DNA from: Halorhodospira halophila SL1
GTDB taxonomy: Bacteria; Pseudomonadota; Gammaproteobacteria; Nitrococcales; Halorhodospiraceae
Assembly (NCBI RefSeq): GCF_000015585.1
Contig: NC_008789.1
Coordinates: 810,001 to 842,000, forward strand
Reading direction: 5' to 3'
Length of the DNA stretch: 32,000 nucleotides
The notes beneath the pieces are model-generated. The model searched no databases, was not told the DNA's origin, and saw nothing but the letters and a program-made list of their open reading frames with translations. Both the position numbers and the translations under genes were made by a program. Within the stretch, counting starts at the first letter, position 1. Each line of letters begins with the position of its first letter. This document shows positions 16,508 through 32,000 of this stretch, in pieces.

Positions 16508-16534
16508 TCGGTCAGCGGTAACCACCCGGAACTG

Positions 16535-16554
16535 GGGGCGGCCACGGCCGCCCC
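16535..16554 (+). terminator. GC hairpin after the repeat-protein gene (attenuator/partial terminator candidate)
   Basis: ggggcggc / gccgcccc stem 28 nt after the stop. A second hairpin ccgcccggc/gccgggcgg lies at about 16579-16601. No U-tract. Confidence 0.4.
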
Positions 16555-16630
16555 GGCCCTCCGGCAGGGAAGTATCGGCAAGGACAGGCCCGCCCGGCAG
16601 CGCCGGGCGGACCGCATCGGGAGCATCCTC

Positions 16631-17727: not shown

Positions 17728-17729
17728 TC

Positions 17730-18245
17730 ATGGCCGCGCCGACCGCCCTCCCCCACCGGGCCCCCTGGGCTGCGGGCCTGGCACTGCTGATCGGTGCCAT
17801 CGGCCACGCCGCCGCCGAGGAGACGCCGGCCTCCCCCTGGGACGACCTGGCCCAAGTGCCGTCCGCCGAGCTGGCCCAGTGGCGCGGCGGCTGGACCAGC
17901 GCCGACGGTGTCCTCGTGCGCTTCGGCTTCGAGCAGGCGGTGGCGGTCAACGGCGAAACGCTGGGCCACGCCCAGATCGATCCCGTGGCCGTGCCACTCG
18001 GCGACCGGGCCGGCGCCCACCAGGCCGCCCGGCAACTGGCCGAGTCGTTCCGCTTCACCACCACCGACGGCGTACAGATGCACCTGGGCGACCAGGGCAT
18101 GACCCTGGTGCTACAGAACAGCCTGGATGGACAACTGATCCAGGTCCTCCAAGATCTGGACGTTCAGCTGGAAGGGATCCCGGTGGAACGCCTCAACCGA
18201 CTGGGGGAGCTGATGCAGGTGCAGATGCTCGAAGGGCTGCGCTGA
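17730..18245 (+). CDS. Exported protein of unknown function
   Basis: Overlaps or abuts the C39 stop (GTG 17724 or ATG 17730). Signal peptide ...LALLIGAIGHAAA|EE. No recognised motif. Confidence 0.6.
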   Translation: MAAPTALPHRAPWAAGLALLIGAIGHAAAEETPASPWDDLAQVPSAELAQWRGGWTSADGVLVRFGFEQAVAVNGETLGHAQIDPVAVPLGDRAGAHQAARQLAESFRFTTTDGVQMHLGDQGMTLVLQNSLDGQLIQVLQDLDVQLEGIPVERLNRLGELMQVQMLEGLR

Positions 18246-18260
18246 CCCGGCCTCCGGCCA

Positions 18261-19448
18261 TCACAGCCCCTGCGTACGCTCCACGACCCAGCGAAAACCG
18301 ATGCGCTCCTGCTCAAGGCGGACGCGCTCGCCGATGCGATCCTGGCGCAGATCCTCGAACAGCGCAGCCTCGGCTTCGGTCAGACGCGCCAGATCGCCGA
18401 GGAAGCGGTGCTCGCTCGGCTCCGCGGTCCACAGGGGGCGGTGCGCTTCCAGCGTGGCCCGGTCCATGAGGAGCGACTCGGCCTGCGGCAGCGCCCGACG
18501 CAGCCGGTTGAGGATGGCGAAGCCGTGGGTGTCGATATCCCCCCAGTAGGCGACACGCACGCGGTGCAGCCAGGGCACCTCGGCCAGGCGCTCGAGGCCG
18601 TAGCCGAGACCGAACACCACCAGCGCGCGGGGGTGCGCCGGGAAGGCGAGGCCGTTGGTCTTGTTCTCGGTGATGAAGACCGTCTCCACCGCCGGCGCCA
18701 GTGCCTGGAACTGCTCGGCGGGGATGGTCAAATCGGTGAGCCCGGCGATGGCGCACGCCGGATCGAGCACCCGAAAGCGCACCAGCGGCGGCTCCTGGCA
18801 CAACCCGTAGCGTTCGGCGAAACGCCGGGCGCCGGTGGCCTCGGCCTGGATGGCCTCGGCCGGCAGGACTGCATCGAGCAGCTCCATGAGCAGCTTGCGC
18901 CGGGCCTCGATGAACTTCGTATCCACTCCCGGGATATCGAGCTGGCGGAGGTAGACGCCGGGGCGCGGATGGTCCCGGAAGTAGCGCAGCACCGCGAGGA
19001 TCCGATCCCACGCCTCGGCGTGCTCCAGCACGGTCAGCGGCCGGCGGGCCAGCCAGTCGGCCAGCTCCGGGAACGCCGCCAGGCCCTGTCGGCAGAGGGC
19101 GTCGAAACGCTCTGCCTCCTGGCGGCGGCCGATCAGGCGCAGGGCGTCGGCCTCGGTCGGTACAACGGCGCCGGCCGGTAGCTCATTGCGGCCGTGGACG
19201 CGGTGACGGACGGTGCGCCACTGGATCTCGAAACCGTAACCGCGCTGCGCCCGGTCGGCGGCGGCGAGGCGCTGCACCCACTGCCGAACGCCCTCGAAGT
19301 CCTCGGCCAGTTCGCGGGAGCCCGGACGGCGGAGCCGCAGGCTCAGCGGGAAGAGCGCGGCACCGGTCACCCGCGCAGCGAGCAGTTCGCCCCGATCCCA
19401 GCGCTTCTGCACCTGCTGGCGCAGATCGGCGGGGGTCGTCCAGCTCAT
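18261..19448 (-). CDS. jetD: Wadjet JetD (DUF3322 N-domain + Toprim-like DUF2220 C-domain)
   Basis: 395 aa from ATG 19446-19448 (MSWTTPADLRQQVQKRWDRGELL...). C-terminal YWGDIDTHGFAILNRLR. ATGA overlap with the jetC stop. Confidence 0.8.
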   Translation of the reverse strand: MSWTTPADLRQQVQKRWDRGELLAARVTGAALFPLSLRLRRPGSRELAEDFEGVRQWVQRLAAADRAQRGYGFEIQWRTVRHRVHGRNELPAGAVVPTEADALRLIGRRQEAERFDALCRQGLAAFPELADWLARRPLTVLEHAEAWDRILAVLRYFRDHPRPGVYLRQLDIPGVDTKFIEARRKLLMELLDAVLPAEAIQAEATGARRFAERYGLCQEPPLVRFRVLDPACAIAGLTDLTIPAEQFQALAPAVETVFITENKTNGLAFPAHPRALVVFGLGYGLERLAEVPWLHRVRVAYWGDIDTHGFAILNRLRRALPQAESLLMDRATLEAHRPLWTAEPSEHRFLGDLARLTEAEAALFEDLRQDRIGERVRLEQERIGFRWVVERTQGL

Positions 19449-20833
19449 CCGCTGGTTGCCGCGCGCCGGATGGCCTTTTCGGCGTGGTACGCCTCGATGC
19501 TCAGATGGCGCAGCAGCGAGAAGCACCCGCCTTCGCCGTGGACGAAGCCGACACTGGCGACGAAGCGCTCGATGATCGCCCTGACCTGGAGGAACTTGCG
19601 CTCGTTGTACTGGGCGTCCTCGGAGCCGGTCACCGTATCCTCGGTGCAGGCCCGGAGCTGCTCGCGGAAGTCGCGGACCTCGGGGTCGGTGGTGGTGTCG
19701 GCGACCAGCTCGATGTAGCGCCCCGAGTTGTAGTCGATATCGAACAGCGAGGCGTTGATGGTTGCGATGCGCTCGCGGATCTGCGCGCGCTCTTTGTTGA
19801 GCTGGGCGTTGAAGTTGGCGATCTCGCGGATGGTGTTCTCGTTGAGCAGCTCCTTGAACCGGGCCTCGAAGCGGGGCAGGTCGTCCTCCTGGAGGGCGGC
19901 GATCTTCGCCTCGTTGGACCAGCCGAGGACGAAGCGGGAGCGGTCGTCGATGCGGTGGCGGTCGTCCTTCTCGTGGCGATCCCCGCCCGCCTTGATCTGC
20001 CCGGCCGGGGTGATGGCGCGATCCTCGCGCCGGAAGGTCTCCAGATCCCGGGTGCAGGCGTAGTCGAAGCGCCGACCCAGCTCCTGCTCCAGCCAGGCGT
20101 AGAACGCCGAGTCGGGACGGATGGCGATCTTACGCACCAGGGACTCGGGGTGCAGCGCGGGCGGCTCACTGCTGCGCGGCTCGCGCACCCGGTAGTAGAC
20201 CAGCCGGCCACGCAGGTGGCTGCGATCCACCCAGCCGGCCACGGCGCGGTAGTGCGCCTCCGGGACCAGGAGCGAGAGGCCGAAGTTGTGGAGCAGCCGC
20301 TCGATGGCCCCCTCCCAGTCCGTCTCCTGCTCATGGACCTGGAGGAGCTCACCGGCGAAGGGGACGGCCTCCTCATCGAGGCTCAGCTCCTGGCACAGGC
20401 GCTGGCGCAGCTCCAGCATGCGCGCCGGGATGTTGGAGCGGCGCTGACGCAGCGACTCCAGCTCCTCTTCCAGGCCGGCGTGCTCGGCACGCAGGTCGCG
20501 CATGCTCACCTGCGCCTCGGTTTGCTGGTTCTGGAGCCGGGTCAGCGCCTCTTCGGCGGCCTCGCGCTCGCCGGCCGCTGCCTGCTGGTTGGCGCGGAAG
20601 ACCTCCGCCGACTCAGCCAGCGGCAGCCCCAGGGCGCGGGCCAGCTCGTTGTAGGTGCGGGCACTGGCGCTGCGCCGCTCCTTCTCCTCGCTCTTGCGGG
20701 CGATCTCCGCCTTGAGCCGCTCCAGGCGATCCCCGCCATTGTCGGCGATGGCCTGCTTGAGCTCGTCGCGCTGGCCCTGCTGCTCGCCGTAGGTCCGGTC
20801 GAGCTGGGCGATCCGATCCTCCAGGCGGGTGAT
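19445..20833 (-). pseudogene. jetC: Wadjet JetC (SMC-like ATPase) remnant: coiled-coil/hinge only
   Basis: Hand translation extends the frame upstream of the ORF-track start to about 20833 (ITRLEDRIAQLDRTYGEQQGQRDELKQAIADNGGDRLERLKAEI...). No Walker A head; the C-terminal head is missing apart from the last about 38 aa (FVASVGFVHGEGG...). Confidence 0.7.
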
Positions 20834-21851
20834 CGCGCACGGCCAGGGCGTGCTGCTCCACCCCCTGGATCAGGTCCATGATGCGGCGGTTCTCCAGCCA
20901 GGCCTGGTCATCGAGGAACTTGCGCAGCTGCGCCGACAGCCGCGAGACGGTGCGCTGGGTCTCCTCGCCGGCATCCAACCAGTCGTGGTGGATGCGCGCC
21001 AGCCGGCGGTCCGGCCCCAGGGTCTGGACCGGTTCGAGTTCCAGGACGCGCTCGAGCAGATCGGTGAGCTCCTCCTGACGCGCCGGCGACATGAGAAACC
21101 CCCAGAAGGCCCGGAAGCTCTTGCCCTGGTCCGAGTCGGCGATGGCGTCGGCCTCCCCGAAGACCTCACCGAGCAGCGCCCCCTTGCTGCCGCCCCAGGT
21201 GGTGATGCGCTCGCGCACCTGGCGGTCGAGTTCACGGAAGTTCTGCTCCACCTGCCGGAAGTCGGAGAGCAGCCCGCGGGCCGTGCGCTCCACCTGGTAG
21301 AAGCGCTCCTTGATCTGCGTCTCGTCCAGCAGCGCCAGCTGCCCATCGCGGATGGCGGCAATCTCGGCGTCGATCTCGGCACGCCGGCGCTCCAGGGCCT
21401 CGATCCGCGCCTCGGGGTCGGTCTCCGCCCCCTGGACCACCTGACGGAGCAGATCGAAGACCGTCATCAGCCGCGACTCCGCCCCCACGAACTGCCGCTC
21501 CTGGAGCTCGTCGAGCCAGCCGAGCGCCGTCTCCGTCGCCGGGGTCAGATCGAAGTGCGGCTCGTCGGTATTCGGCGGGTAGAACTTGCGCAGCCAGCCC
21601 CGTTCGTCCGCCGCCCAGTCATTGAGATACTCCGCCGCCGAGCGTGGATAGACCGCCTCGCCCAACTCCTCGCGCAGGCCGTGCAGGTAGTCCTCCAGGG
21701 CGTTGGTCAGCTCCCCCTGGGCGCGCGCCCGGCAATTGGGCTCGACGAAGGCACGATGCAGGAAGCCGAGCACCAGCGGCGCGCTATCGGCAGCGAGCAG
21801 CCGCCAGGCCGGGTGGTGACGGCGCAGGGTGTCGAGGTGGTGGTAATCCAT
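20826..21851 (-). pseudogene. jetA: Wadjet JetA (DUF3375) truncated at about residue 340
   Basis: MDYHHLDTLRRHHPAWRLLAADSAPLVLGFL... is typical JetA. Recognisable sequence ends at ...IQGVEQHALAVRDHP, and the rest of the ORF-track product is out-of-frame jetC sequence. Confidence 0.7.
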
Positions 21852-21994
21852 GCTCGGCTCGCTCGCTGATCCTGCCCCAAGGTGATCCGGTACGGGAACC
21901 GGAAACGGCGGCGGCCGTCAACGGGCCGACCCACTCGCCGGCACCCGCGATGGCCGGGCGTGTGCGGACCGACCACGGTGCTTGGGGCCCCCCA

Positions 21995-22301
21995 TCACCC
22001 CAGGCGGTTCTCCACCGGCGTGCCGCTCATGGCCACCCGGGCCGCACCGGGGATGGATTGGCCGAGACCGTACCCCCATCCACCGTCAGCGCCTGAACCG
22101 AACCGTTGTTGGCATACCGCCGCCCCCGCGGACGCCCCGCCGCAGCTCACTAACCGTGACGACGGACAGAAACAGGCCATGACCGTCGGCCGCTGAGCGC
22201 TCAAAAAACTGCCGTACACCGGAGTTGGCGCGCCCGCCTTTTCTGGCCTCGCTGATGACGTTGGTGTCAATCAAAAACACGCGGCGCGCCCTCCTGATCA
22301 T
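21995..22301 (-). pseudogene. PIN-domain toxin (FitB/VapC-like), frameshifted or degenerate
   Basis: N-terminus MIRRARRVFLIDTNVISEARKG...LSVVTVSELRRGV is PIN-like. The frame then dies, and weak PIN-like remnants (ADGGWGYGLGQSIPG...) sit in another frame. Confidence 0.5.
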
Positions 22302-22345
22302 CGGCGCGCTGGAAGTCATCGTCACGGCCGACGTCTGGCATGGAG
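22267..22345 (-). pseudogene. C-terminal stump of the cognate FitA/VapB-type antitoxin
   Basis: ...ASMPDVGRDDDFQRADDQEGAPRVFD* overlaps the PIN start. The 5' part is replaced at about 22340 by unrelated plus-strand sequence. Confidence 0.45.
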
Positions 22346-22463
22346 GCAAGCAGTGATAGCATCTCTAGCTTACCAACGGATGACGAGGGTATCCTCGTGG
22401 AGCGAGCGTTCGGGTCCACGGTCAACGGGACCGCCACCCCCGAGAGTGACCTCGACGTGGTCG
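22340..22463 (+). pseudogene. N-terminal fragment of an MntA-like nucleotidyltransferase
   Basis: MEASSDSISSLPTDDEGILVERAFGSTVNGTATPESDLDVVAL carries the GS-x9-SDLD NTase motif. About 80% DNA identity to 28858-28935, then breaks off. Confidence 0.6.
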
Positions 22464-22508
22464 CTCTGGACTCAGATCGAGCGCAGCGATCGCTCCCTGG
22501 CCACCTGA
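22464..22508 (+). pseudogene. 3'-terminal stump of a HEPN gene
   Basis: Reads SLWTQIERSDRSLAT* in its own frame. This is a DNA/protein match to the end of the HEPN gene at 23254-23298 (AFWIQIERSYRSLVA*). Confidence 0.55.
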
Positions 22509-22519
22509 GAAGATCGCTT

Positions 22520-22828
22520 ATGCGCCTTACGCAACGCCAGCGGGAGGTCATTCAGCAAGCAGCACGACGGGCCTTTGGCCCTGGCGCGCGGGTCAAGCTG
22601 TTCGGCTCCCGCCTCGACGATCAGGCCCGAGGCGGCGATTTCGACCTCCACGTCGAGACCTCCGAGGCGGATCCTGAGCGCCTCGTCGCGGCGCGGCTGT
22701 CCTTCCTCCAGGCACTCCATGCCGATCCAGCCCTGGAGGATGAGAAGATCGACGTGGTCGTTCAGAGCCCCTTGCACAGCGCGAGGCCGATCGACCAGGT
22801 GGCCAGGCAGGAAGGCGTCGAGCTATGA
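22520..22828 (+). CDS. Minimal nucleotidyltransferase (MntA-like antitoxin candidate)
   Basis: 102 aa from ATG 22520. KLFGSRLDDQARGGDFDLHVE NTase motif; ATGA overlap with the downstream HEPN gene. Confidence 0.7.
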   Translation: MRLTQRQREVIQQAARRAFGPGARVKLFGSRLDDQARGGDFDLHVETSEADPERLVAARLSFLQALHADPALEDEKIDVVVQSPLHSARPIDQVARQEGVEL

Positions 22829-23298
22829 GCAGCGGCAACCGGGCCAAACTTCAGGAAGCGGTCGATGCCTGCACCTGGCACGCCGAGATCTTGCACGAGG
22901 ACCTGGCGGAGCACGGCGATCACCGCTACGACGCCCCATACGTCGCGCACCTCGACCGAGGCAGACTGCGCTTACTGGACCAGATGGCCTACCGCTTCAC
23001 CAAGCTCCAGGACACCATCGGCCAGCAAGCCTTACCCGGCATCCTGGAGCTCGCCGAGGAGCCGCTGCCGCCGGAAACCCCCTTCGCGCAGAAGCTCCAG
23101 CAGCTTGAGCGCATCGGCGTCATCCCCTCTGCCGAAACATGGCGCGAACTGCGCGAGACCCGGAACGCGATCGCCCACGAGTACCCGGATCAGCCCGAGA
23201 TCCGGGCCGCGGTCCTGAACCGCTTCCTGCAAGATGTGGAGAAGCTCCTCGCGTTCTGGATCCAGATCGAGCGCAGCTATCGCTCCCTTGTCGCCTGA
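22825..23298 (+). CDS. HEPN-domain protein (HepT-like toxin candidate)
   Basis: 157 aa with an R-x4-H-x-Y motif RNAIAHEY, coupled to the NTase gene. Confidence 0.7.
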   Translation: MSSGNRAKLQEAVDACTWHAEILHEDLAEHGDHRYDAPYVAHLDRGRLRLLDQMAYRFTKLQDTIGQQALPGILELAEEPLPPETPFAQKLQQLERIGVIPSAETWRELRETRNAIAHEYPDQPEIRAAVLNRFLQDVEKLLAFWIQIERSYRSLVA

Positions 23299-23312
23299 AC
23301 AAGCGAACCCCC

Positions 23313-23369
23313 ATGAACCCCGCAGCACTCCGCCTGCAGGTGCTGCGCGCCGAGGCAGGATTGCCGCAC
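23313..23369 (+). pseudogene. 5' fragment (19 codons) of a MarR-family EPS-regulator paralogue
   Basis: MNPAALRLQVLRAEAGLPH, compared with MDTEELHLQVLRLLDDNPH of the intact gene at 30678. DNA homology also covers about 20 nt upstream of the ATG. It ends exactly at the integrase stop codon. Confidence 0.6.
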
Positions 23370-24523
23370 TATTGGCTCGCCATCATCGCCTCGAACGCGG
23401 AACCGTCGTCGCCCAGGGCATTCGCCACGAAGGGGGCGTAGCGCTCGAAGAGCATCTTCGTCGAGGAGTGGCCAAGCAGCCGGGAGACGAATAACGGATT
23501 CTCGCCGGCAGCCAGGTGGAGCACGGCGGCCGTATGGCGGGTCTGGTAGACCCGTCGCGGGGCCAGACCGAGGGCCTTGAGGGTAGGCTTCCAGACCTGC
23601 TCGGCCACCCAGCTCGGGTGAAGCGGCCGCCCGTCCGAGCGCGTAAAGACGTAGTCGTCACCCTGCCGACCCCGAATGTGCCGATCCAGCTCCGCCGCCA
23701 ACCCCGGCGACAAGGGGATATCCCGCCGGGTCTTGCGGTGCTTGAGGGTCGTCTGCCGCCCATCGACCCGGGCCTCGCGAACCCGCAGCTGCCGGCGCTC
23801 CAGGTCCACGTAGCACACCTTCAGGCCGTCGACCTCGCAGCTGCGCAACCCGGTATAGAAACGCAGCTTAAAGTAGAGGTAGTAATCCGGATCGACGGCG
23901 GCGAGGAAGGCGTGGACCTGCTCCGCGGTCAGCGGCATGGGATCGTCGCGATCGTCGCGCAGGGGCCGGATTTGGCGCATGGGGTGCTCGATCCCGAGTT
24001 CGCTTTCGGCGAAGCGCATCACGCCGGCGAGGGGCGTGAGGATGAAGTTGATACGGGCGTTGCTCAGCCGACGCTCGCCGCGGGCGTTGGTGAGCTCCAG
24101 GAGTTCGTGCCGAAAGGCGCGGACCGCGCGCTCGGTGATCTGATCCAACGGCCACTCGCCGAAGTGCGGAATCAGATAGCCCTCCAGAACACCGCACACC
24201 CGCCGCGCGTAGCTCTCCTTCCAGTCCCCGAGGTGGAGCTGATACCACTGCCACGCGTAGGGGCCGAAGCGCTGATCCGGCGCTCGCGAGCCCTGCTCGC
24301 GCAGCCAGCGCTGCGCCTCGGCCAGCTTGCGGCTGTTGGGGAACCAGGCCGCATAATCGAACGTCCCCATCTCGATCTCGGCGTTGATCCGCCGCAGATC
24401 ACGCCGGATCCGCCGGCGATTCTCGGGCGTATCGCGCAGCCCGGAGGTCTCGCGGAAGCGCCTTCCGTACAGACACAGATCGTACTGCAGCACCCCATTG
24501 GGGCGGACACAGAAACTCGCCAT
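23369..24523 (-). CDS. int: Tyrosine site-specific integrase (phage type, DUF3596-like arm-binding N-terminus)
   Basis: 384 aa from ATG 24521-24523 behind ggagagg. Catalytic signature R (YTGLRSCE), H-x-x-R (TRHTAA), LLGHSS...ERY. Confidence 0.85.
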   Translation of the reverse strand: MASFCVRPNGVLQYDLCLYGRRFRETSGLRDTPENRRRIRRDLRRINAEIEMGTFDYAAWFPNSRKLAEAQRWLREQGSRAPDQRFGPYAWQWYQLHLGDWKESYARRVCGVLEGYLIPHFGEWPLDQITERAVRAFRHELLELTNARGERRLSNARINFILTPLAGVMRFAESELGIEHPMRQIRPLRDDRDDPMPLTAEQVHAFLAAVDPDYYLYFKLRFYTGLRSCEVDGLKVCYVDLERRQLRVREARVDGRQTTLKHRKTRRDIPLSPGLAAELDRHIRGRQGDDYVFTRSDGRPLHPSWVAEQVWKPTLKALGLAPRRVYQTRHTAAVLHLAAGENPLFVSRLLGHSSTKMLFERYAPFVANALGDDGSAFEAMMASQ

Positions 24524-24673
24524 GACCTTCACCTCTCCTTCCCTGGAGACGATGATCAATCGTACGCCCGAACGGGCGGTCTACGTCCACCACTGGCTGA
24601 CGGGAGCACTTGCTTCGCGGATCGCATATGAGCGCGGTGGCGGCGGATGGCCCCCAAACAGGCGGTCGCGGTG

Positions 24674-24767
24674 CCGCGCGGTCAGGGCTGCCGGGAACTG
24701 TTAAAGTGAAGGAATGGAGCAGACCCCGCAGCATCCGCAGTTGCACTCGGTCAGCCAGCGGCTCGCC
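24674..24767. repeat. Repeat R, copy 1 (longest)
   Basis: ccgcgcggtcagggctgccgggaactgttaaagtgaaggaatggagcagaccccgcagcatccgcagttgcactcggtcagccagcggctcgcc. Partial copies lie at 28784-28850 and 29324-29379. Confidence 0.9.
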
Positions 24768-24888
24768 AGTCCAGTGCCTTGCGCGGCCGCTGGTTGAGAA
24801 GGCGCGCAATATCGTTGAGTTGGGTCTGGCTCGGCTCGCTGAGATCGGCGCCCTGGTCCAGGGCCTGTGCGAATCGGGTACTGGACAT
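24751..24888 (-). pseudogene. C-terminal stump of an IS30-family transposase
   Basis: ...DLSEPSQTQLNDIARLLNQRPRKALDW... carries the LN-x-RPRK-x-L motif typical of IS30-family transposase C-termini. There is no catalytic DDE region. Confidence 0.55.
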
Positions 24889-24910
24889 CAACCGGACCCC
24901 CCGCCATTCT

Positions 24911-24934
24911 TTGGATGTACATGAGCGTGTGTAC
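24911..24934 (+). promoter_or_regulatory. Candidate vapBC promoter/operator
   Basis: TTGGAT followed by inverted repeat GTACA-N8-TGTAC (24917-24934) and TACTAG, 36 nt upstream of vapB. Confidence 0.3.
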
Positions 24935-24969
24935 TAGGCCGCCCGAGCGTATCCGGCCAGGGGGGAACC

Positions 24970-25224
24970 ATGAGCGAACACATTACCCGCGTATTCCAGA
25001 ACGGAAACAGCCAGGCGGTGCGTATCCCCGCCGCATACCGCCTGGATAGCGACCGCGTTTTGATCGAGCGCAATGAACGCGGCGATCTGGTGTTGCATCC
25101 GTTGCCCGAGAGGCGCGGCGATTCACTGCTGGCGGCCCTGGAGGGGTTTGACGACGAGTTCATTGCGGCCTTGGAAGAGGAGCGGGACCAGCCGCAACCA
25201 CCCCAGGACCGGGAGTCGCTGTGA
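24970..25224 (+). CDS. vapB: AbrB/SpoVT-fold antitoxin VapB
   Basis: 84 aa. FQNGNSQAVRIPAAYRL is the classic VapB/MazE-type swapped-hairpin motif. GTGA overlap with vapC. Confidence 0.85.
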   Translation: MSEHITRVFQNGNSQAVRIPAAYRLDSDRVLIERNERGDLVLHPLPERRGDSLLAALEGFDDEFIAALEEERDQPQPPQDRESL

Positions 25225-25493
25225 CTTACCTCCTGGACACGAACATCTTGATCTACCTGATCAAGAACCGCCCTCCCGCCGTGGCTGAGCGGGTCAACGC
25301 CCTGCCCAGGGAAGATCTGCTCTGCATGTCGTTCGTGACCTTCGCGGAACAGCTCAAGGGCGCAGAAAGAAGCACCCGGAAAGCGCAGGTCCTGCAGAGC
25401 CTGGAAAGGCTGAAACAGGAAATCATCGTGGTTTATCCCGATAGCCCCGTCATATGCCACCACTACGCGGAACAGTTCACCCTCTTGAACAAG
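25221..25493 (+). pseudogene. vapC: PIN toxin VapC, 5' two-thirds, interrupted by an IS200/IS605-family element
   Basis: MTYLLDTNILIYLIKNRPPAVAERV... aligns with plasmid MvpT/VapC up to ...HYAEQFTLLNK. After that the frame reads into the IS left end. Confidence 0.75.
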
Positions 25494-25510
25494 TGCCCGC
25501 CGCATTCCGC

Positions 25511-25537
25511 GACTCAATTCCCGTCAGGGAATGAGTC
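25511..25537 (+). repeat. Left-end subterminal hairpin
   Basis: gactcaattccc-gtca-gggaatgagtc with one bulged A. Confidence 0.7.
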
Positions 25538-25569
25538 GTCGGTCAAGGCGGGCTTTCTTGGCTGAGGAC

Positions 25570-25700
25570 CTAGTGCTTCACGGTGTAGAGGTTGGCCCCG
25601 CCGGTCGTTGTGACCGCATAGGCGCGCGACCAGAAATAGGGCTTCCAGAACCACTGCGCGAGATGCTCAGATGCGCGTGATCGGCCTCGCCGTTGCACTC
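25570..25700 (-). pseudogene. tnpA: IS200-type Y1 (HUH) transposase TnpA remnant
   Basis: C-terminal ...EHLAQWFWKPYFWSRAYAVTTTGGANLYTVKH*. An HUH piece ECNGEADHAHL lies in a different frame immediately upstream, so roughly 40 codons are missing and the frame is shifted. Confidence 0.55.
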
Positions 25701-25800
25701 AGTGAGTGCTGCAGCCCCAATTGCCGATCACATCAACAAATGCGGGTTCTCAGCGTTGTGTTCGATTGCACTTTAATTCCTGATCTGAAACAATTTCGCC

Positions 25801-27141
25801 GTGAAACTCATCCGCTCCGACAAGCTCGGCGTCAAGGTTCATCGACCCGAGCAGCGTGAAGCCCTCGATGCGACACTGGCGGTGTATCGCAATCTTGTGC
25901 GTGATCTCATGACGATGATGATGACGCATTGGCCTGCACTTGGTCGCTTCGAGGGCAACGCCATCGTCAAGGAGGTCGAGCGGTTGATCCATCCCACCAG
26001 CAAGCGCCCGCAGGTACGCTACCCCTATTTCGCGCGCCGCTATTACAAGTTCCCGAGCTACCTGCGCCGCGTTGCGATCATGGATGCCGCCGGACAGGTG
26101 CGCTCCTTCCATACCCGATTCGACACCTGGCGCTGCGGTGATCGCAGGCACCAACATGCACAACCGCCACGGCTTGTTTGTGCCACGAATACATTCCCAG
26201 CGCTCTATCAGGGCCAATGCATCCGCTTCAATGAACGCTACACCGAGGCAGCGATCAAGGTCTTTCACCGAGGCGACTGGGTGTGGATGCACTTTCGGCT
26301 GACCGGTGCGCATCGCTATCTCGGCACGGGCAAGCAGCGTGCCCCTCAGCTTGTGGCCAAGCGCGGGCGCTACACGCTGTCCGTGCCCGTTGAGCGCCCC
26401 ATCACCCTGCCACGCAATGCCGATGTCGATCGTGTGCTGTCGGTCGATGTCGGGATCAACACCGCCGCTACCTGGGCGGTTGTCGATGCCACCGGCACTG
26501 TGCACGCCCGAGGCTTTCTCGGGCGTTGCGACAAAGACCGTGAGGCACGGCTGATCGCCCGCATCCAGAAGGCGGCCCGACAGCACACGCGCCACGGCTG
26601 CCGGCTGCCACCGGGCTTCTGCGCCCGGGATCACCGCCGGTTGCGTGGGTTGTTCGACAATGCCGCTCACCAGATCAGCCGCCGGATCGTCAACGAGGCA
26701 TTGGCGCATGGCGCCCAGGCCATCATCGTTGAGCACCTCAAGGGCTGGCGACCCCGAGCCGGTCGGCGGCGCAGCCCCCTGCGCCAGCGCTTCCACCGCT
26801 GGTTCCACCGGCTGCTCGTCGATCGTATCGAGGCCAAGGCGACTGAGGCCGGGCTGCGAACACGGACGGTCTACCCGCGCGGGACTTCTTCGCAGGCGTT
26901 CGATGGCTCCGGCAAGGTGCTGCGGGATCAAGCCAATGCCCGTCTTTGCACTTTCCCGAGCGGCAAGCGCTATAACGCCGATCTCAATGCGGCCTACAAC
27001 ATCGCCGCAAGAGGCATTGTCAGCATTCACCGCCCGACTCGCGAGAGTCAGGCGGGTGCGCAGCGGCCGAAGCCCGCTGCCACACCGCGAAGCCCGGTGA
27101 CGCTCTCCAGCCTGTGGCCCACGGCCACGGCAACTGCGTGA
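25801..27141 (+). CDS. tnpB: TnpB-like RNA-guided nuclease (IS605 OrfB family) with degenerate zinc finger
   Basis: 446 aa, GTG start. RuvC-I LSVDVGINTAAT, RuvC-II AIIVEHLKGW, RuvC-III RYNADLNAAYNIA. The expected CxxC...CxxC region reads TSSQAFDGSGKV...ARLCTFPSGK. Confidence 0.8.
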   Translation: MKLIRSDKLGVKVHRPEQREALDATLAVYRNLVRDLMTMMMTHWPALGRFEGNAIVKEVERLIHPTSKRPQVRYPYFARRYYKFPSYLRRVAIMDAAGQVRSFHTRFDTWRCGDRRHQHAQPPRLVCATNTFPALYQGQCIRFNERYTEAAIKVFHRGDWVWMHFRLTGAHRYLGTGKQRAPQLVAKRGRYTLSVPVERPITLPRNADVDRVLSVDVGINTAATWAVVDATGTVHARGFLGRCDKDREARLIARIQKAARQHTRHGCRLPPGFCARDHRRLRGLFDNAAHQISRRIVNEALAHGAQAIIVEHLKGWRPRAGRRRSPLRQRFHRWFHRLLVDRIEAKATEAGLRTRTVYPRGTSSQAFDGSGKVLRDQANARLCTFPSGKRYNADLNAAYNIAARGIVSIHRPTRESQAGAQRPKPAATPRSPVTLSSLWPTATATA

Positions 27142-27156
27142 GTGATCGGATTCCGC

Positions 27157-27183
27157 GACTCAATTTCCGGCAGGAAATGAGTC
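27157..27183 (+). repeat. Right-end subterminal hairpin
   Basis: gactcaatttcc-ggca-ggaaatgagtc has the same bulged A. A compensatory c:g to t:a change relative to the left-end hairpin preserves pairing. Confidence 0.7.
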
Positions 27184-27219
27184 GTCGGAGGCTTCAAAGT
27201 GGAGGACTGGGCGTCCTGA
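27181..27219 (+). pseudogene. vapC: Last codons of vapC
   Basis: VVGGFKVEDWAS*, compared with ...RVGGLRTEDWS* of MvpT-type VapC. About 30 codons of the PIN core between the two pieces are absent. Confidence 0.5.
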
Positions 27220-27224
27220 GCCGG

Positions 27225-27296
27225 ATCGAGGCGCTGTGCGCGGAGGTGGAGGCCGCCGAGCCGGCCGGCGACGAGGCGGTGGACGAGGCCGACTAG
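27225..27296 (+). pseudogene. 3'-terminal fragment of a MarR-family EPS-regulator paralogue
   Basis: IEALCAEVEAAEPAGDEAVDEAD*, compared with IEQLRAEVEAADKTPAADDAP... of the intact gene. DNA match gatcgag..gctg.gcgc.gaggtggaggccgccga. Confidence 0.5.
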
Positions 27297-27350
27297 CCCC
27301 CGGCCCCGCCGAGCGGCCCGGCACCGTAGCGGCCTTGCCCGCGGCCTCCC

Positions 27351-27434
27351 CCTGTGGTGGAATCCTGTGCTCACAACCTGAACACACCTGCCGGACGGGC
27401 CTGCCCAGGCGTCACCGCCCTGGCGGTAGCGTGC
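27351..27434 (+). repeat. Repeat P (regulator-gene leader), copy 1
   Basis: cctgtggt...gctcacaacctgaacacacctgccggacgggcctgcccaggcgtcaccgccctggcggtagcgtgc. The 66-nt core has 3 mismatches versus 30563-30628. Confidence 0.85.
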
Positions 27435-27503
27435 CGGAGCGCCCCGACCGCGAATCGTCGATGGGATCGCGGGCCGCAAGCTGCACAATCAGATGAGGCT
27501 GGA

Positions 27504-27998
27504 ATGGCCAACAACACCACGGCTTTAGCCCATCAGCTGCGGGCTACCCAACGCCTTGCATACCGCCTCGAGCAGGCCATCGAGGTGCTACGCCCGCACT
27601 TCCCGCTTGACCCCGAGCAGTTCGATCCGGACATGCTGCCCGTGGAGGTGGCGATGGGCCTAGACGCATTCCGTACGCGCTTCGCTGACCTCCAGGACAT
27701 GCTCGGGCGCACAACTTTCCGCAGCTTGGCGAGGGCGGATGAGGACGAGACCCCCGGGCAAGAGCTGACCACCCGCGAGCGGATCGCGTTGATGGAACGC
27801 CGTGGCATCCTGGACGCCGCGTAGTGGCGACAGATCCAGGAGGTCCGCAATCAGTTCGCCCACGAGTACCCAGACGCTCATAGTGAGAAGGCGGCAAACC
27901 TGAACGCCGCTTGGCAGCTTACACCCCCCTTGCTGAGCGTTGCACGGCGGTGTACCCAGTACGCTCAGGAAAAGCATGGAGTAACGTGGTGCGACTAA
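27504..27998 (+). pseudogene. HEPN-domain (HepT-like) gene with in-frame amber codon
   Basis: Paralogue of 22825-23298. TAG at 27822-27824 sits 6 codons before the R-x4-H motif (ILDAA*WRQIQEVRNQFAHEYPD). The same frame stays open to TAA 27996-27998. Confidence 0.7.
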
Positions 27999-28324
27999 CG
28001 CCCGCCGAGCAGGCCACGATCCGCTCTGTTTGCCACAGCCACCTGCCGGCCGACCTCATATGGCGCCTACGCGTCTTCGGCTCCTGCCTTAATGAGGAGG
28101 CGCGGGGCGGCGATGTGGACCTCTACCTGGAGCTCGAGGGCGCAGATGCCACACGGCGGGCCGCCGTAGCTCGCGATCTTCGACCTGCCCTGGAGGAGGC
28201 CCTCGACCGGCCCGTGGACCTGGTCGTTCAGGATCCGGCACAGCCCCTGAAAGCCGTCGCCGCCATCGCACGGGAGCAGGGCATACGCATCGCTCAGGCC
28301 GACTCCGGCGAGCAGGTGAGCTGA
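27986..28324 (+). CDS. Minimal nucleotidyltransferase (MntA-like)
   Basis: GTG 27986/27989 behind ggag, overlapping the HEPN 3' end. RVFGSCLNEEARGGDVDLYLE; homologous to 22520-22828. Confidence 0.65.
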   Translation: MVRLTPAEQATIRSVCHSHLPADLIWRLRVFGSCLNEEARGGDVDLYLELEGADATRRAAVARDLRPALEEALDRPVDLVVQDPAQPLKAVAAIAREQGIRIAQADSGEQVS

Positions 28325-28325
28325 C

Positions 28326-28785
28326 GCCGCACTATTGGCTCGCCATCATCGCCTCGAACGCGGAACCGTCGTCGCCCAGGGCATTCGCCACGAAGGGGGC
28401 GTAACGCTCGAAGAGCATCTTCGTCGAGGAGTGGCCAAGCAGCCGGGAGACGAATAACGGATTCTCGCCGGCAGCCAGGTGGAGCACGGCGGCCGTATGG
28501 CGGGTCTGGTAGCCCCGCCGGGGGGGCCAGACCGAGGGCCTTGAGGGTGGGCTTCCAGACCTGCTCGGCCACCCAACTCGGGTGAAGCGGCCGCCCGTCC
28601 GAGCGCGTAAAGACGTAGTCATCGTCCTGCCGACCCCGAATGTGCCGATCCAGCTCCGCCGCCAACCCCGGCGACAAGGGGATATCCCGCCGGGTCTTGC
28701 GGTACTTGAGGGTCGTCTGCCGCCCATCGACCCGGGCCTCGCGAACCCGCAGCTGCCGGCGCTCCAGGTCCACGTAGCACACCTT
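28326..28785 (-). pseudogene. int: Duplicated 3' fragment of the integrase gene (frameshifted)
   Basis: About 97% identical to 23363-23821, with one extra G in the run at about 28521-28527. Contains only the last about 150 codons. Confidence 0.9.
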
Positions 28786-28850
28786 AAAGTGAAGGAATGG
28801 AGCAGACCCCGCAGCATCCGCAGTTGCATTCGGTCAGCCAGCGGCTCGCC
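28784..28850. repeat. Repeat R, copy 2
   Basis: ttaaagtgaaggaatggagcagaccccgcagcatccgcagttgcattcggtcagccagcggctcgcc, joined directly to the integrase fragment through a 2-nt (tt) microhomology. Confidence 0.9.
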
Positions 28851-29168
28851 GAGGACGAGGATATCCTCGTGGGACTGGCGTTCGGGTCCATGGTCAACGG
28901 GACCGCCACCCCCGAGAGTGACCTCGACGTGGGCGTGCTGTGTGCGGGCCCCCTTCCCGCCGAGAAACGTCGCGCATTGATCCATGACCTGGGCCAATGC
29001 CTCGGGCGCCCTGTGGATCTGGTCGACCTCCGTACCGCGGGCGTTCCCGTGCGCCGGCAAGCGCTGCCGCGCGCAGCATGGCAGCATTGCTGGACCAAGG
29101 GTGACCGATTACCGCAGCCTCTCCTGGCCGAGGCCATGCGTGTCCGCAGTACGCGGCTCTCGGGTTAG
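28797..29168 (+). CDS. MntA-like nucleotidyltransferase, 5' end lies inside repeat R (possibly chimeric)
   Basis: LAFGSMVNGTATPESDLDVGVL NTase motif and VDLVDLRTAG. The first 18 codons belong to repeat R. No partner HEPN gene follows. Confidence 0.55.
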   Translation: MEQTPQHPQLHSVSQRLAEDEDILVGLAFGSMVNGTATPESDLDVGVLCAGPLPAEKRRALIHDLGQCLGRPVDLVDLRTAGVPVRRQALPRAAWQHCWTKGDRLPQPLLAEAMRVRSTRLSG

Positions 29169-29197
29169 CGCCGCGACGAGGACACTCTTATGCCCTC

Positions 29198-29217
29198 ATG
29201 ACCATCTAGATAGTCAT
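29198..29217. promoter_or_regulatory. 20-bp near-perfect palindrome in an AT-rich patch (orphan operator candidate)
   Basis: ATGACCATCTAGATAGTCAT (one mismatch) followed by cataatat. Confidence 0.3.
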
Positions 29218-29323
29218 AATATAGCCCAATCCGTCTCACGATGCCCAAGGCTTTTCGGCCTACGCCCGGCAGTTGTCTCCCTCGCCCGATCTGATCGGAT
29301 AACGCTACCCGACCGTCACGGCC

Positions 29324-29379
29324 CCGCGCGGCCAGGGTTCCCCGGAACTGTTAAAGTGAAGGAATGGAGCAGACACCGC
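29324..29379. repeat. Repeat R, copy 3
   Basis: ccgcgcggccagggttccccggaactgttaaagtgaaggaatggagcagacaccgc, abutting the MarR 3' fragment. Confidence 0.85.
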
Positions 29380-29383
29380 CCCG

Positions 29384-29623
29384 CGCTCCGTGATCGAGCG
29401 CGGCTGGGTCAAGCTCGAGAACTTCCGCCGCTCGGGGCACAAGATGGGCTACGCCTACAAGCTCACCCCGAGCGGCCTCCAGGAGAGGACCCGCCTCGCC
29501 TATGAGCACCTGCAGCGCAAGCGCGCCGAGCACGAGCGCCTGATGGCCGAGATTGAGCAGTTGCGCGCCGAGGTCGAGGAGGCAGAGGCAGAGCTGGCGG
29601 AGCGCCCGGCGCAGCCCTCGTGA
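29384..29623 (+). pseudogene. 3' two-thirds of a MarR-family EPS-regulator paralogue
   Basis: RSVIERGWVKLENFRRSGHKMGYAYKLTPSGLQERTRLAYEHLQRKRAEHERLMAEIEQLRAEVEE... is colinear with residues about 41-110 of the intact gene. The N-terminal HTH half is missing. Confidence 0.75.
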
Positions 29624-29670
29624 CGCAGTCCTTGAGCATGGCTGGCGCCAGCTAACCCTAGCGATAGGCG

Positions 29671-30351
29671 ATGCTCGGTATGGAAACCGCAGATCACCCA
29701 GCGAACCCCCACGATGCGCTGGTCAAGGCGCTGTTGGAGGCCCCGGAGCGGGCCGCCGTCGTCCTGCGCGAGAAGCTGTCGCTGATCGAGTGCATCGATG
29801 CCGACGAGGAGCTCCTCGAGCTCCAGCGCCACTTCGGCTACCAGGTCCGCCACCTCCGGCCGGATGAACCGGACGCCTCCTACTCCCAGGACCCGGCCGT
29901 GCGGGCCGTGCTACGCGCCCTGGCCTGGTCCTGCGTACAGGAGCTCAGCCGCGAGGACCTGGTGCACCTGCTCCGGGACCTGCCGCCCGGCCACCCGCTC
30001 GAGAAGCCGCTGCTGGTCTATATCGCCCGGACCTACGGCTCCATCGCCGAGGCCGATGTGCGCTATGCTCTGGAGCAGACACGGCCGATTGAGCAAGCGG
30101 AGGAGCTGACCATGACCGTCGCCGAGGAGTGGATCCAGCGCGGAAGACAACAGGGCTGGCAAGAGGGCCGGCAAGAAGGCCTGCAAGAGGCCGAGACCCG
30201 AGCGTTGCTCCAGCAGATCGAGCTGAAGTTCGGCCAAGCAACCAAGGAGGCCCACCGCCAGCGCGTGGAGCAAGGAACCCCCGAGGAGCTCGAGCGGTGG
30301 CTTCGTCGCATCATCACGGCCAATCGGGTCGACGACCTCTTCGACGATTGA
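29671..30351 (+). CDS. Rpn/YhgA-like (transposase_31 family) protein with DUF4351-like C-terminus, apparently short in the nuclease core
   Basis: N-terminus NPHDALVKALLEAPERAAVVL. The C-terminus has the MTVAEEWIQRGRQQGWQEGRQEG repeat followed by LLQQIELKFGQ...LERWLRRIITANRVDDLF. It is 226 aa, against about 290-310 aa as I recall for the family. Confidence 0.5.
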   Translation: MLGMETADHPANPHDALVKALLEAPERAAVVLREKLSLIECIDADEELLELQRHFGYQVRHLRPDEPDASYSQDPAVRAVLRALAWSCVQELSREDLVHLLRDLPPGHPLEKPLLVYIARTYGSIAEADVRYALEQTRPIEQAEELTMTVAEEWIQRGRQQGWQEGRQEGLQEAETRALLQQIELKFGQATKEAHRQRVEQGTPEELERWLRRIITANRVDDLFDD

Positions 30352-30545
30352 CGTTCAGAGCCCATAAGCGACTCGCTCGGGAATATTCATCACGGCGCCG
30401 CAACGGGCCGCATAGACAGCACCTTATGGGACTGACTCAGGCCGCCCGGCTGTCTCTTCCGTTACCGTTATTGCCTCAGCCACCCCGCGCACCCAAACTC
30501 CCCCGCTGGACCGCTCTACCGCCTGTTGGTTGCCCCCACGTAACA

Positions 30546-30628
30546 CCTGTGGTTACATTACCGCTCACAACCTGAACACCCCTGCCGGACGGGCCTGCCC
30601 AGGCGTCACCGTCCCGGCGGTAGCGTGC
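30546..30628 (+). repeat. Repeat P, copy 2 (native leader of the intact regulator gene)
   Basis: See 27351-27434. Ends 50 nt upstream of ATG 30678. Confidence 0.85.
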
Positions 30629-30677
30629 TCGAACGCCCTACCCCGGCCGCGCCGCGGCCCTGATCAAGCGCCCCCGA

Positions 30678-31052
30678 ATGGACACCGAAGAACTCCACCT
30701 GCAGGTGCTGCGCCTGCTCGATGACAACCCGCATCTCAGCCAGCGGCAGATCGCCGGCGAGCTCGGGCTGTCCGTCGGCAAGACGAACTACGCCGTACGC
30801 TCGGTGATCGAGCGCGGCTGGGTGAAGGCGCAGAACTTCTCCCACTCCCCGAACAAGCGCCGCTACCTGTACAGGCTCACCCCCGCCGGGGTGAGCGAGA
30901 AGGCGCAGCTGGCCTACCGCCACCTGCAGCGCAAGCGCGCCGAGCACGAACGGCTGATGCAGGAGATCGAGCAGCTGCGCGCCGAGGTGGAGGCCGCCGA
31001 CAAGACACCGGCCGCGGACGACGCCCCCACGCGCAACCCGGGCCAGTCCTGA
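30678..31052 (+). CDS. MarR-family EPS-associated transcriptional regulator
   Basis: 124 aa. LQVLRLLDDNPHLSQRQIAGELGLSVGKTNYAVRSVIERGWVKAQNF...YLYRLTPAG...RKRAEHERLMQEIEQL matches my recollection of the EPS-locus MarR subfamily. Confidence 0.75.
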   Translation: MDTEELHLQVLRLLDDNPHLSQRQIAGELGLSVGKTNYAVRSVIERGWVKAQNFSHSPNKRRYLYRLTPAGVSEKAQLAYRHLQRKRAEHERLMQEIEQLRAEVEAADKTPAADDAPTRNPGQS

Positions 31053-31096
31053 CGAACCCGCACACCCACCCACACGAACCGCCCAACGAGACCGCT

Positions 31097-32000
31097 TTGC
31101 TCCAGAAGATCCTCTACCTACTCAGCCCCCAGGAGAAGCGCCGCGGCGCCCTGGTCCTGGTCATGGTCATCCTCATGGCGCTGCTCGAGACCATCGGCGT
31201 CGCCTCGGTGATGCCGTTTCTCAGCGTCCTCGGCAACCCCGAGGTGGTGGAGACCAACGCCGTCCTCGCCAGCCTCTACGACGGCCTGGGCTTCGAGTCG
31301 GTGGACACCTTCCTGATGGCCCTCGGCGCGGCCGCCTTCGCGCTGATCGTCTTCTCGGCGCTGTTTCGCGCGCTGACCATCTACGCCATGAACCGCTGGG
31401 CGCTGATGCGCGTGCACAGCTTCGCGCAGCGCCTGCTCGAGACCTACCTGCGCCAGCCCTACGCCTACTTCCTCGACCACCACAGCGGGGACATGTCGAA
31501 GACCATCCTCTCCGAGGCGCAGCAGGTGGTCGGCCAGGCGATCAAGCCGGCGCTGGAGGCCGTCTCGCACCTGATCGTGGTGCTGGCGCTGATCACCCTG
31601 CTGGTGGTTATCGATCCGGTGCTGGCCCTGGCCGTGGCGGGGGCCCTCGGCGGCACCTACGCGCTGATCTATGTCACCATCCGCGGCTTCCTCGATCGCA
31701 TCGGGCGCGACCGGGTGCGCGCCAACAAAGAGCGCTTCGAGGCCGCCGGCGAGGCCCTCGGCGGGATCAAGGACATCAAGCTGCTCGGCCGCGAGCACAG
31801 CTACCTGCAGCGCTTCCGCGGCCCCTCGGCGCGCTTTGCCAAGCACCAGGCGACCAGCAACGTGCTCTCGCAGGTGCCGCAGTTCCTCATCCAGGCGGTG
31901 GCCATTGGCGGCATGATCGCCCTGACCCTGGTGCTGATGGCCACCCACGGCGGGGCGACCAGCGGGGCGCTCGGCGAAGTGCTGCCGATCCTCGGCCTCT
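31097..32000 (+). CDS. ABC exporter, transmembrane domain (3' end outside window)
   Basis: Not in the ORF track because there is no stop in the window. Hand translation from TTG 31097: LLQKILYLLSPQEKRRGALVLVMVILMALLETIGVASVMPFLSVLGNP..., a typical type-I ABC exporter TMD of polysaccharide loci. The start codon is uncertain. Confidence 0.7.
   Translation, partial: MLQKILYLLSPQEKRRGALVLVMVILMALLETIGVASVMPFLSVLGNPEVVETNAVLASLYDGLGFESVDTFLMALGAAAFALIVFSALFRALTIYAMNRWALMRVHSFAQRLLETYLRQPYAYFLDHHSGDMSKTILSEAQQVVGQAIKPALEAVSHLIVVLALITLLVVIDPVLALAVAGALGGTYALIYVTIRGFLDRIGRDRVRANKERFEAAGEALGGIKDIKLLGREHSYLQRFRGPSARFAKHQATSNVLSQVPQFLIQAVAIGGMIALTLVLMATHGGATSGALGEVLPILGL

Follow-up and report, generated by a model that had tools for sequence, protein, structure and literature searches.

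The window analysed here is a stretch of 32,000 nucleotides (nt) from Halorhodospira halophila SL1 (assembly GCF_000015585.1, contig NC_008789.1, positions 810,001 to 842,000), towards the right end of which lies an intact gene encoding a MarR-type exopolysaccharide (EPS) regulator, MarR_EPS. Its product is a full match to TIGR04176 (149.6 bits against a cut-off of 88, covering model positions 2-104 of 105), the gene retains a complete promoter/operator leader, and an ATP-binding cassette (ABC) exporter gene starts ~65 nt 3' of it. On L068, a contig with an identical regulator, genes for the ABC exporter, a murA-like protein, murB, a sulfotransferase and a family 2 glycosyltransferase (GT2) follow directly downstream, and the orthologous loci L072-L076 have the same EPS-type gene setting. 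It is because of these downstream genes that the intact gene is taken to head an EPS locus, as an original prediction made from the bare sequence had said. That prediction also held that the pieces of MarR gene scattered upstream were left behind when an integrase-bearing element repeatedly targeted this gene, or a tandem paralogue. The pieces and leaders in question are:

23294-23348, + strand: fragment A, 19 nt of upstream sequence and codons 1-12 of a MarR_EPS copy
27224-27296, + strand: fragment B, the probable 3' end (~24 codons) of a second MarR_EPS copy, closed by a separate stop at 27294-27296
27347-27454, + strand: leader copy with an operator-like palindrome GCTCACAACCTGAAC at 27369-27383, now 5' of a HEPN2 pseudogene and MNT2
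29377-29623, + strand: fragment C, all that follows from codon ~40 in a third MarR_EPS copy, a divergent one
30520-30662, + strand: leader of the intact gene, with the palindrome at 30563-30577
30678-31052, + strand: intact MarR_EPS regulator gene (TIGR04176)

The MarR_EPS pieces and their relatives

The repeats were recovered by self-BLASTN of the whole window together with a separate repeat search, and all five that had been predicted exist and stand above chance. Fragment A is 82% identical to 30659-30713 over 55 nt (E=2e-8) and 85-89% identical to the 5' end of the MarR gene in L004, a contig of a metagenome-assembled genome (MAG). Its last 16 nt (CCTGCAGGTGCTGCGC, 23333-23348) recur unchanged at 30698-30713, in codons 8-12 of the intact gene, and the window has no third perfect copy of CCTGCAGGTGCTGCGC. 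The homology stops 20 nt before the stop codon of an integrase gene on the − strand (23369-23371). A 5' piece of 19 codons ending exactly at that stop had been predicted; the piece is real but has 12 codons and ends 20 nt short of the stop, and the longer version was rejected as over codons 13-17 (23349-23362) only 2 of 14 bases agree with the intact gene, CCGCA alone being in register.

Fragment B is 89% identical to the intact gene over 36 nt (27224-27259 against 30965-31000, E=3e-6) and is probably the 3' end of a second MarR_EPS copy. Fragment C is 75.5% identical at the nucleotide level (29384-29579 against 30798-30993, E=2e-33) and 67% identical in amino acids (aa), with its translation (29390-29623) matching positions 42-104 of TIGR04176 at 82.5 bits, which is below the cut-off of 88 and not full-length, the N-terminal helix-turn-helix (HTH) part being missing. 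It is as far from the intact gene as the orthologues of Thioalkalivibrio are, and besides its own open reading frame (ORF), which the annotation of H. halophila SL1 gives as a MarR-family regulator of 77 aa, its best matches are no more than 75% identical. Both pieces had been predicted, as a 24-codon 3' end at 27225-27296 and a 3' two-thirds fragment at 29384-29623, and both hold; the same is true of the duplication of an 84-nt leader (27351-27434), the copies of which turn out to be longer by profile search.

The region of codons 96-107 (IE(Q/A)L(R/C)AEVE) occurs three times, in fragment B, in fragment C and in the intact gene, each time with a separate stop codon (27294, 29621 and 31050), thus at least three MarR_EPS genes existed. 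All of the MarR pieces and both leaders lie colinearly on the + strand, in the order fragment A, integrase element 1, fragment B, leader, HEPN2-MNT2, integrase element 2, fragment C, Rpn remnant, leader, intact gene, which is the order expected of three tandem units of leader and gene with the first two broken.

More than one MarR_EPS gene is also found in relatives. L076 (Halorhodospira, GCA_022227925.1) has two intact tandem MarR_EPS genes, MarR_a (8062-8430) and MarR_b (10001-10369), each with its own leader, separated by an MNT3 5' piece and an Rpn-like gene and preceded by a toxin-antitoxin (TA) array, an arrangement that mirrors the fragment C, Rpn remnant, leader and MarR gene of the window; no integrase was found within 10 kb upstream of MarR_b. 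The order of Rpn-like gene, leader and MarR is kept in L072, L074 and L075 of H. halochloris as well as in L076, with a full-length DUF4351 gene directly 5' of the MarR unit in all four. Three MarR pieces and extra leaders are present in H. halochloris (L001/L072), namely a leader and MarR codons 1-8 joined to HicAB, half a leader joined to codons 39-69, and a piece of codons 8-18. The Lamprobacter MAG (L014/L017) carries three or four MarR copies, scattered 47-nt MarR 3' ends and PIN, HTH and DUF29 genes, with no tblastn match to the window integrase, and in H. abdelmalekii (L005) the order is prpB, leader, MarR, second leader and group II intron. The multiplication and decay of MarR units is thus a feature of this border throughout the lineage, and one that is independent of the integrase.

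We consider it probable that the fragments are relics of at least three tandem paralogous MarR_EPS units in a variable hot spot, and what the original prediction offered as a fallback, a tandem paralogue, has become the main point, with at least three copies in the window and tandem genes in L076. The norm for the genus would be an array with more than one MarR_EPS unit, each a ~100-nt promoter/operator leader and a gene, interleaved with TA pairs and an Rpn-like gene. Three tandem units would have stood here, of which only that nearest the EPS operon is intact. Unit 1 would be fragment A, possibly with fragment B, split by element copy 1, which now comprises the integrase, an MNT3 piece, an IS30 relic, vapB with a shortened vapC, and a TnpB element; that A and B belonged to one gene is something we infer. 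Unit 2 would be the leader at 27347-27454 and fragment C, its 5' part having been replaced by HEPN2-MNT2, integrase copy 2, MNT3 and scraps of modules, with the Rpn-like remnant falling between units 2 and 3 as it does in L076. The later losses may have come about by small illegitimate (microhomology) deletions, replacement of modules and insertion of insertion sequences (IS).

A number of points weigh against such a history. Fragment B is the weakest of the pieces, resting on a match of 36 nt, and other MarR loci give just marginal matches to it. Fragment C is 63% identical in aa to MarR_a of L076 and 64% to MarR_b; being equally near to both, its orthology with the upstream paralogue is positional only. 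The comparison with related genomes in search of an empty site or attachment (att) core, which the original prediction had proposed, yielded the tandem intact genes of L076 but no genome with a clean empty site among the relatives compared, which include L005, with a different upstream gene (prpB), and L076, without integrase but with two MarR genes. Contigs with an identical intact MarR or HEPN1 protein end at repeats. L004 has the same vapC flank as the window, followed by vapB, a leader and an uninterrupted MarR with no integrase, and its single MarR beside the vapBC flank of fragment A is also readable as the unoccupied target of one insertion; L004 is itself rearranged, with two leaders, a jetA 5' scrap and duplicated vapC pieces.

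The leader repeat

The two leaders of the window are 92% identical between 27369-27444 and 30563-30638 (E=3e-25), with a profile search widening the copies to 27347-27447 and 30543-30641. The module comprises a -10-like box, the palindrome G(C/T)TCA-N5-TGAAC, a hairpin formed by GCCGGACGG...CCGTCCCGGC, and GGTAGCGTGCC, which does not vary. In the window the palindrome occurs only at the two positions given above. Of 56 MarR_EPS loci from beta- and gammaproteobacteria and spirochaetes, 48 have it no more than 200 nt 5' of the regulator gene, as against 2.9% of random 200-nt windows. Judging from this distribution it is likely to be the operator of the MarR_EPS regulator. In Burkholderiales it often lies just after a TAGAAT/TACACT box. 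A sigma-54 promoter in the leader was also considered and dropped, as it fits one copy only and by eye.

The hairpin (27385-27447 and 30579-30641) encloses a small inner stem and is followed by the invariant GGTAGCGTGCC. Across the aligned leaders 93% of cells are paired, and 14 cells show a double change, as against 5.9 after shuffling and never as many as 14 in 500 shuffles; the aligned sequences are related, and the covariation is therefore moderate evidence. The leader matches no family in Rfam. The hairpin could act as a cis-regulatory RNA or serve to bind a protein. Its 3' part is also found upstream of MarR_EPS in Thioalkalivibrio and Herbaspirillum.

Loci of Halorhodospira carry 2-5 leader copies of ~100 nt with 75-92% identity, and these precede MarR copies, the ABC exporter (where it is apart from MarR), the Rpn-like gene and TA pairs, the latter being HEPN2-MNT2 in the window, HicAB in L072, and MNT-HepT and DUF6364-PIN in L076. 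Extra copies in the relatives lie at L072 3298-3402 and 8747-8844, L073 13473-13569, and L076 4973-5073, 6018-6120 and 17064-17159, with L076 having five leaders within 12 kb. In L005 the reverse transcriptase of the group II intron (11597-12982, − strand) is inserted immediately after the second leader copy. It is plausible that recombination between leader repeats drives the turnover of modules. It is unlikely, in our estimation, that the leader is a portable regulatory module in a cassette array which turns over by leader recombination, with the integrase possibly helping, TA and defence genes coming under the EPS regulator and the fragments being the debris of that turnover.

The integrase elements and other possible origins for the fragments

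The integrase beside fragment A is present in two copies:

23369-24559, − strand: tyrosine integrase, intact (element copy 1), with the Pfam domains Phage_integrase and Arm-DNA-bind_2 (DUF3596)
28326-28785, − strand: integrase 3' fragment (element copy 2), frameshifted and fused to MNT3

The catalytic residues R227, K261, R329, H352 and Y362 are present in the integrase and invariant across 11 homologues, and DUF3596 is the mark of the IntBPP-1 subgroup (PMC8138268). The closest relatives of the window integrase, and likewise of MarR, are from Halorhodospira. Relatives in phages are at most 29% identical and those in plasmids at most 40%, too distant to allow a characterised att site to be borrowed, and a metagenome scan with the window integrase gave one distant match only.

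The integrase copies are 97.6% identical (23363-23821 against 28326-28785) with one 1-nt indel, copy 2 lying 4.96 kb to the right of copy 1 in the same orientation, shortened and frameshifted. Both begin with GCCGCACTATTGGCTCGC, which has no further occurrence in the window. The fusion of copy 2 to MNT3 is an 879-nt deletion with a 2-nt microhomology at the junction, and the left flank of copy 2 is the stop codon of MNT2, 1 nt away, with no MarR piece. A second integrase fragment with the same junction (28326) had been predicted, and the fragment and its GCCGCACTATTGGCTCGC start are real, but the supposed junction is simply where the homology of the copies ends, with the MNT stop at its left.

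The sole attL-like junction is that at fragment A, with codon 12 of the regulator, then 20 nt, then the integrase stop. It is possible, although we lean somewhat against it, that site-specific recombination at the 16-bp sequence of codons 8-12 brought element 1 into a MarR copy. This 16-bp identity (23333 and 30698) falls within the 55-nt repeat of 82% identity, in a conserved LQVLR coding stretch that is identical in L004, and for this reason it does not count as independent evidence of insertion. The element end GCCGCACTATTGG has no repeat elsewhere in the window that could be its att partner, and the window contains no att copy of the element end GCCGCACTATTGGCTCGC. Comparison of identity before and after the core was set aside as a test for an element-derived 5' end, as the segments are too short (34/41 against 306/340). 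The breakpoints clustering at codons 8-12 (fragment A and two L001 pieces) were not relied upon as a hot spot, nor were those at codon ~39-41 (fragment C and one L001 piece), where a GCCG/CCGC microhomology explains the codon-39 joins.

Integrases of 71-80% identity (L001-L003, L061-L067) recur within TA arrays beside polysaccharide-synthesis genes in Chromatiales metagenomes, surrounded by Fic, HipA, HigB, BrnT, PIN and ParE modules. L061 has an additional integrase 3' fragment, and in L065 a full Transposase_31 (Rpn) gene, homologous to 29671-30351 of the window, follows the integrase. The homology between the integrases ends right after FEAMM, a few codons before the stop, and all of the tails differ (23369-23385 in the window), which could be ordinary tail variability or an att core overlapping the 3' end of the integrase gene. 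A ~140-nt palindromic repeat (L073 1137-1270, 2700-2840 and 4187-4327; L001 5502-5640), repetitive extragenic palindrome (REP)- or miniature inverted-repeat transposable element (MITE)-like in appearance, lies on either side of the integrase and beta-CASP genes in genomes of the H. halochloris type, where it adjoins the integrase stop directly.

The SXT element supplies a new promoter and 5' end to the gene prfC. Integration of the SXT/R391 integrative and conjugative element (ICE) into the 5' end of prfC is attributed to Hochhut & Waldor (1999) as cited in PMC8138268. The window is like this system in having a tyrosine integrase with an arm-binding domain and a junction in the first codons of a chromosomal gene, with the gene left intact and the promoter and 5' codons on the element side. 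It is unlike it in that the integrase is of the DUF3596/IntBPP-1 type and not IntSXT (DUF4102), the element is without conjugation genes and the relatives of the integrase do not use the MarR target.

An explanation modelled on SXT and prfC would have one MarR_EPS gene hit repeatedly at its 5' end by an integrative element that supplies the leader and 12 codons, the target being part-duplicated each time with deletions following later. The abutment of fragment A on the 3' end of the integrase and the 16-bp core it has in common with the intact gene are in favour of this, as is the leader at the right of each element copy, where an element-borne P arm is expected. L004 also fits, with vapBC, leader and MarR but no integrase, the part of the intact gene after the core being 90% identical to L004, and H. 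halochloris carries an integrase of 80% identity and like orientation 2.8-10 kb 5' of MarR, from which TA cargo separates it; no integrase remnant was found after the MarR 5' piece of H. halochloris, a HicA gene being present instead. However, integration at a 5' end duplicates 5' sequence only, thus B and C, which are overlapping 3' fragments with their own stops, are not accounted for, and C at 75% identity is no recent duplicate. Copy 2 of the integrase has no MarR piece at its flank, nor is there one at the integrase stop in nine further loci whose integrase is 71-80% identical (L001, L002, L003, L061, L062, L065, L066, L067 and L073). The core itself is conserved coding sequence, and repetition of MarR is seen without an integrase in Lamprobacter and L076. 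We therefore find this course of events decidedly unlikely, and those parts of the original prediction in which a single gene is interrupted, each integration leaves a partial copy of its target and the regulator is targeted repeatedly are not sustained. What remains of its integrase-bearing elements is an intact integrase 20 nt from a MarR 5' piece with a 16-bp identity and a second integrase copy, but the fragments are probably not target duplications left by them. Scrambling of the array by IS-mediated deletions finds no support either, the one reconstructable junction, that of integrase copy 2, having the 2-nt microhomology described above.

The extra copies might also have come from outside, a foreign MarR unit and its cargo being imported through homology of MarR or leader (Campbell-type or homology-facilitated illegitimate recombination) with divergent copies piling up at the edge of the EPS locus. 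The copies do differ by 11-25%, the best matches of fragment C outside SL1 are as distant as noted above, leaders of ~100 nt with 75-92% identity flank modules at 2-5 per locus, and strains with the same flanks differ completely in module content. This overlaps heavily with descent from tandem paralogues, from which it differs only in the source of the extra copies, but no donor-like sequence was identified and by itself it does not explain the junction of A and integrase, and we give it only a small chance. More distant still is an integron-like platform, in which the integrase recombines at leader repeats and so captures and shuffles leader-fronted cassettes. As in sedentary chromosomal integrons there are arrays of small TA cassettes near a tyrosine recombinase (in 10 loci) and a repeated, palindrome-bearing element of ~100 nt that precedes the cassettes. 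Unlike integrons there is no IntI, the integrase scoring 31.3 bits with TIGR02249 (cut-off 265) and 16.7 bits with PRK15417 (cut-off 435), and no attC-like family of inverted repeats was found in the window, the repeated element being a promoter-operator-hairpin leader 5' of genes. None of the 48 of 56 MarR_EPS loci that bear the palindrome has a tblastn match to the window integrase, an operator being the better explanation of the palindrome, and the five leaders of L076 are present with no integrase within the 10 kb searched. An integron-like origin is accordingly most improbable.

The variable hot spot and its likeness to known systems

The scattered fragments in 22-31 kb derive from many genes, of which MarR is just one, and the hypervariable array of small modules they belong to sits just 5' of the EPS ABC-exporter operon. 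The left flank at 15668-18243 is 82% identical to L076 2-2552, the left end of the L076 locus, and on the right the sequence from 30528 onward matches the MarR units of L076, with 31092-32000 matching its ABC exporter. Between them the content of the window is wholly unlike the corresponding interior of L076. With flanks in common and interiors that differ, 18244-30527 is a strain-variable hot spot. The remaining features are:

18244-30527, strand not applicable: variable hot spot, with a Wadjet remnant, TA modules, integrase elements, IS relics and MarR relics between conserved flanks
22131-22352, − strand: 5' half of vapC (PIN positions 2-47, E=0.005), its vapB partner replaced
22340-23298, + strand: MNT/HEPN mosaic (Pfam NTP_transf_2 / HepT-like)
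24665-24767, + strand: MNT3 upstream region and first 18 codons (copy 1), 98.5% identical to 28784-28850 and ending abruptly at 24767
24751-24933, − strand: remnant of the C-terminus of an IS30-family transposase, found by tblastn
24970-25565, + strand: vapB (24970-25224) and a shortened vapC (PIN positions 1-74 of 120)
25501-27188, + strand: TnpB-only IS200/IS605-type element, with tnpB at 25801-27141 and 42-nt hairpin-containing direct repeats outside it
27504-28324, + strand: TA pair of HEPN2 (disrupted after 27824) and MNT2, behind the leader copy at 27347-27454
28784-29168, + strand: complete MNT3 nucleotidyltransferase gene (ORF 28797-29168 and 13 nt upstream)
29137-29287, no strand assigned: what is left of a phd/vapC module, with homology to L004 1050-1099 and 1355-1460
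29315-29379, + strand: third copy of the MNT3 upstream region with ~5 codons, joined to fragment C
29671-30351, + strand: Rpn-like (Transposase_31 / DUF4351) remnant, 73-76% identical in nucleotides to the Transposase_31 gene of L065, with a weak DUF4351 match

The 5' half of vapC is 86% identical to L004 2110-2331, where vapC, vapB, leader and MarR are contiguous, and L004 1355-1579, part of which is homologous to the phd/vapC remnants, is contiguous with a leader. The mosaic is made up of an MNT3-type 5' piece (to 22468), a HEPN 3'-end piece (22462-22508), an MNT gene (~22520-22828) and HEPN1 (22825-23298), with repeats pairing 22379-22463 with 28851-28935 (90.6%), 22462-22508 with 23252-23298 (85%), and 22601-22657 with 28076-28132. 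The 5' region of the MNT gene is present in three or four copies (24665-24767, 28784-28850, 29315-29379 and 22379-22463), which had not been predicted, and neither had the 42-nt hairpin repeat on either side of tnpB (25501-25542 against 27147-27188, 90%). Microhomology of 2-4 nt is found at the deletion junctions.

The IS types present are the TnpB-only element and the IS30-family remnant. TnpB scores 32.6 bits with Cas12f1-like_TNB (cut-off 26.3) and 48 bits with TIGR01766 (cut-off 32), while its 94.4 bits with NF040570 are slightly below the cut-off of 100, and no ORF for tnpA (Y1 transposase) was found in the element. The element interrupts vapC, yet its right flank is not vapC. The IS30 remnant has no Pfam match; tblastn with it hit 1,690 plasmid records, one of them beneath an annotated IS30 family transposase.

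A degenerate Wadjet system (18261-21851, − strand) has JetD (DUF3322 and JetD_C) and JetA (DUF3375) either side of a 354-aa ORF, which stands in place of JetB and JetC and has no Pfam match. The same arrangement of JetD, 354-aa ORF and JetA is seen in L070, a contig with an identical HEPN1 protein, and L004 retains just a 205-nt jetA 5' scrap that adjoins a leader. The left 14 kb of the window are core genome, with argG, argF, argD, RNase T, a VpsR-type sigma-54 activator, oxoprolinase and two tRNAs, and the activator (7474-9075, + strand), which lies 21 kb 5' of the EPS locus, is a further candidate for a regulator of EPS. At 15134-16504 (+ strand) there is an ORF of low GC content (60-64%) with strong AT skew and internal repeats of ~90-290 nt (15352-16084), which has no Pfam match and is kept in L076 (2-2552) beside a Peptidase_C39 gene.

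Genomic islands are known to accrete in tandem and decay at one att site, for example ICE and cis-mobilisable elements (CIME) in streptococci. The window is like these in its two direct copies of an integrase element, the second shortened and with cargo eroded by deletions and IS insertions, and unlike them in that the junction between the copies is not attP-like and most of the "target" pieces come from separate paralogous genes. The window also resembles hot spots of TA and defence genes, in that conserved flanks enclose strain-specific content, here TA pairs, IS elements, an integrase and what is left of a Wadjet system. Unlike the usual case, many modules follow a promoter/operator copy of the kind that precedes the neighbouring EPS regulator gene, and that gene too occurs several times over. 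The TIGR04176 regulators include the intact gene as a full member, which resembles them in heading a locus of ABC exporter and glycosyltransferases, and it is the several copies and relics carried by Halorhodospira and Lamprobacter that are unlike other TIGR04176 loci.

The locus is one of ordinary island turnover and genome decay, a further example of a known process. There are however some consequences for the family and for the annotation of H. halophila SL1, in which the 77-aa "MarR family regulator" is a pseudogene relic. The palindrome is a likely operator for a regulator family for which no characterisation was found in the literature searched, and the hairpin-containing leader, without a match in Rfam and recurring before EPS exporter genes and TA pairs, is a testable by-product. 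More generally, pieces of a gene beside an integrase need not be duplications of an att site, and in this case they would reflect tandem paralogues that were lost from a variable hot spot.

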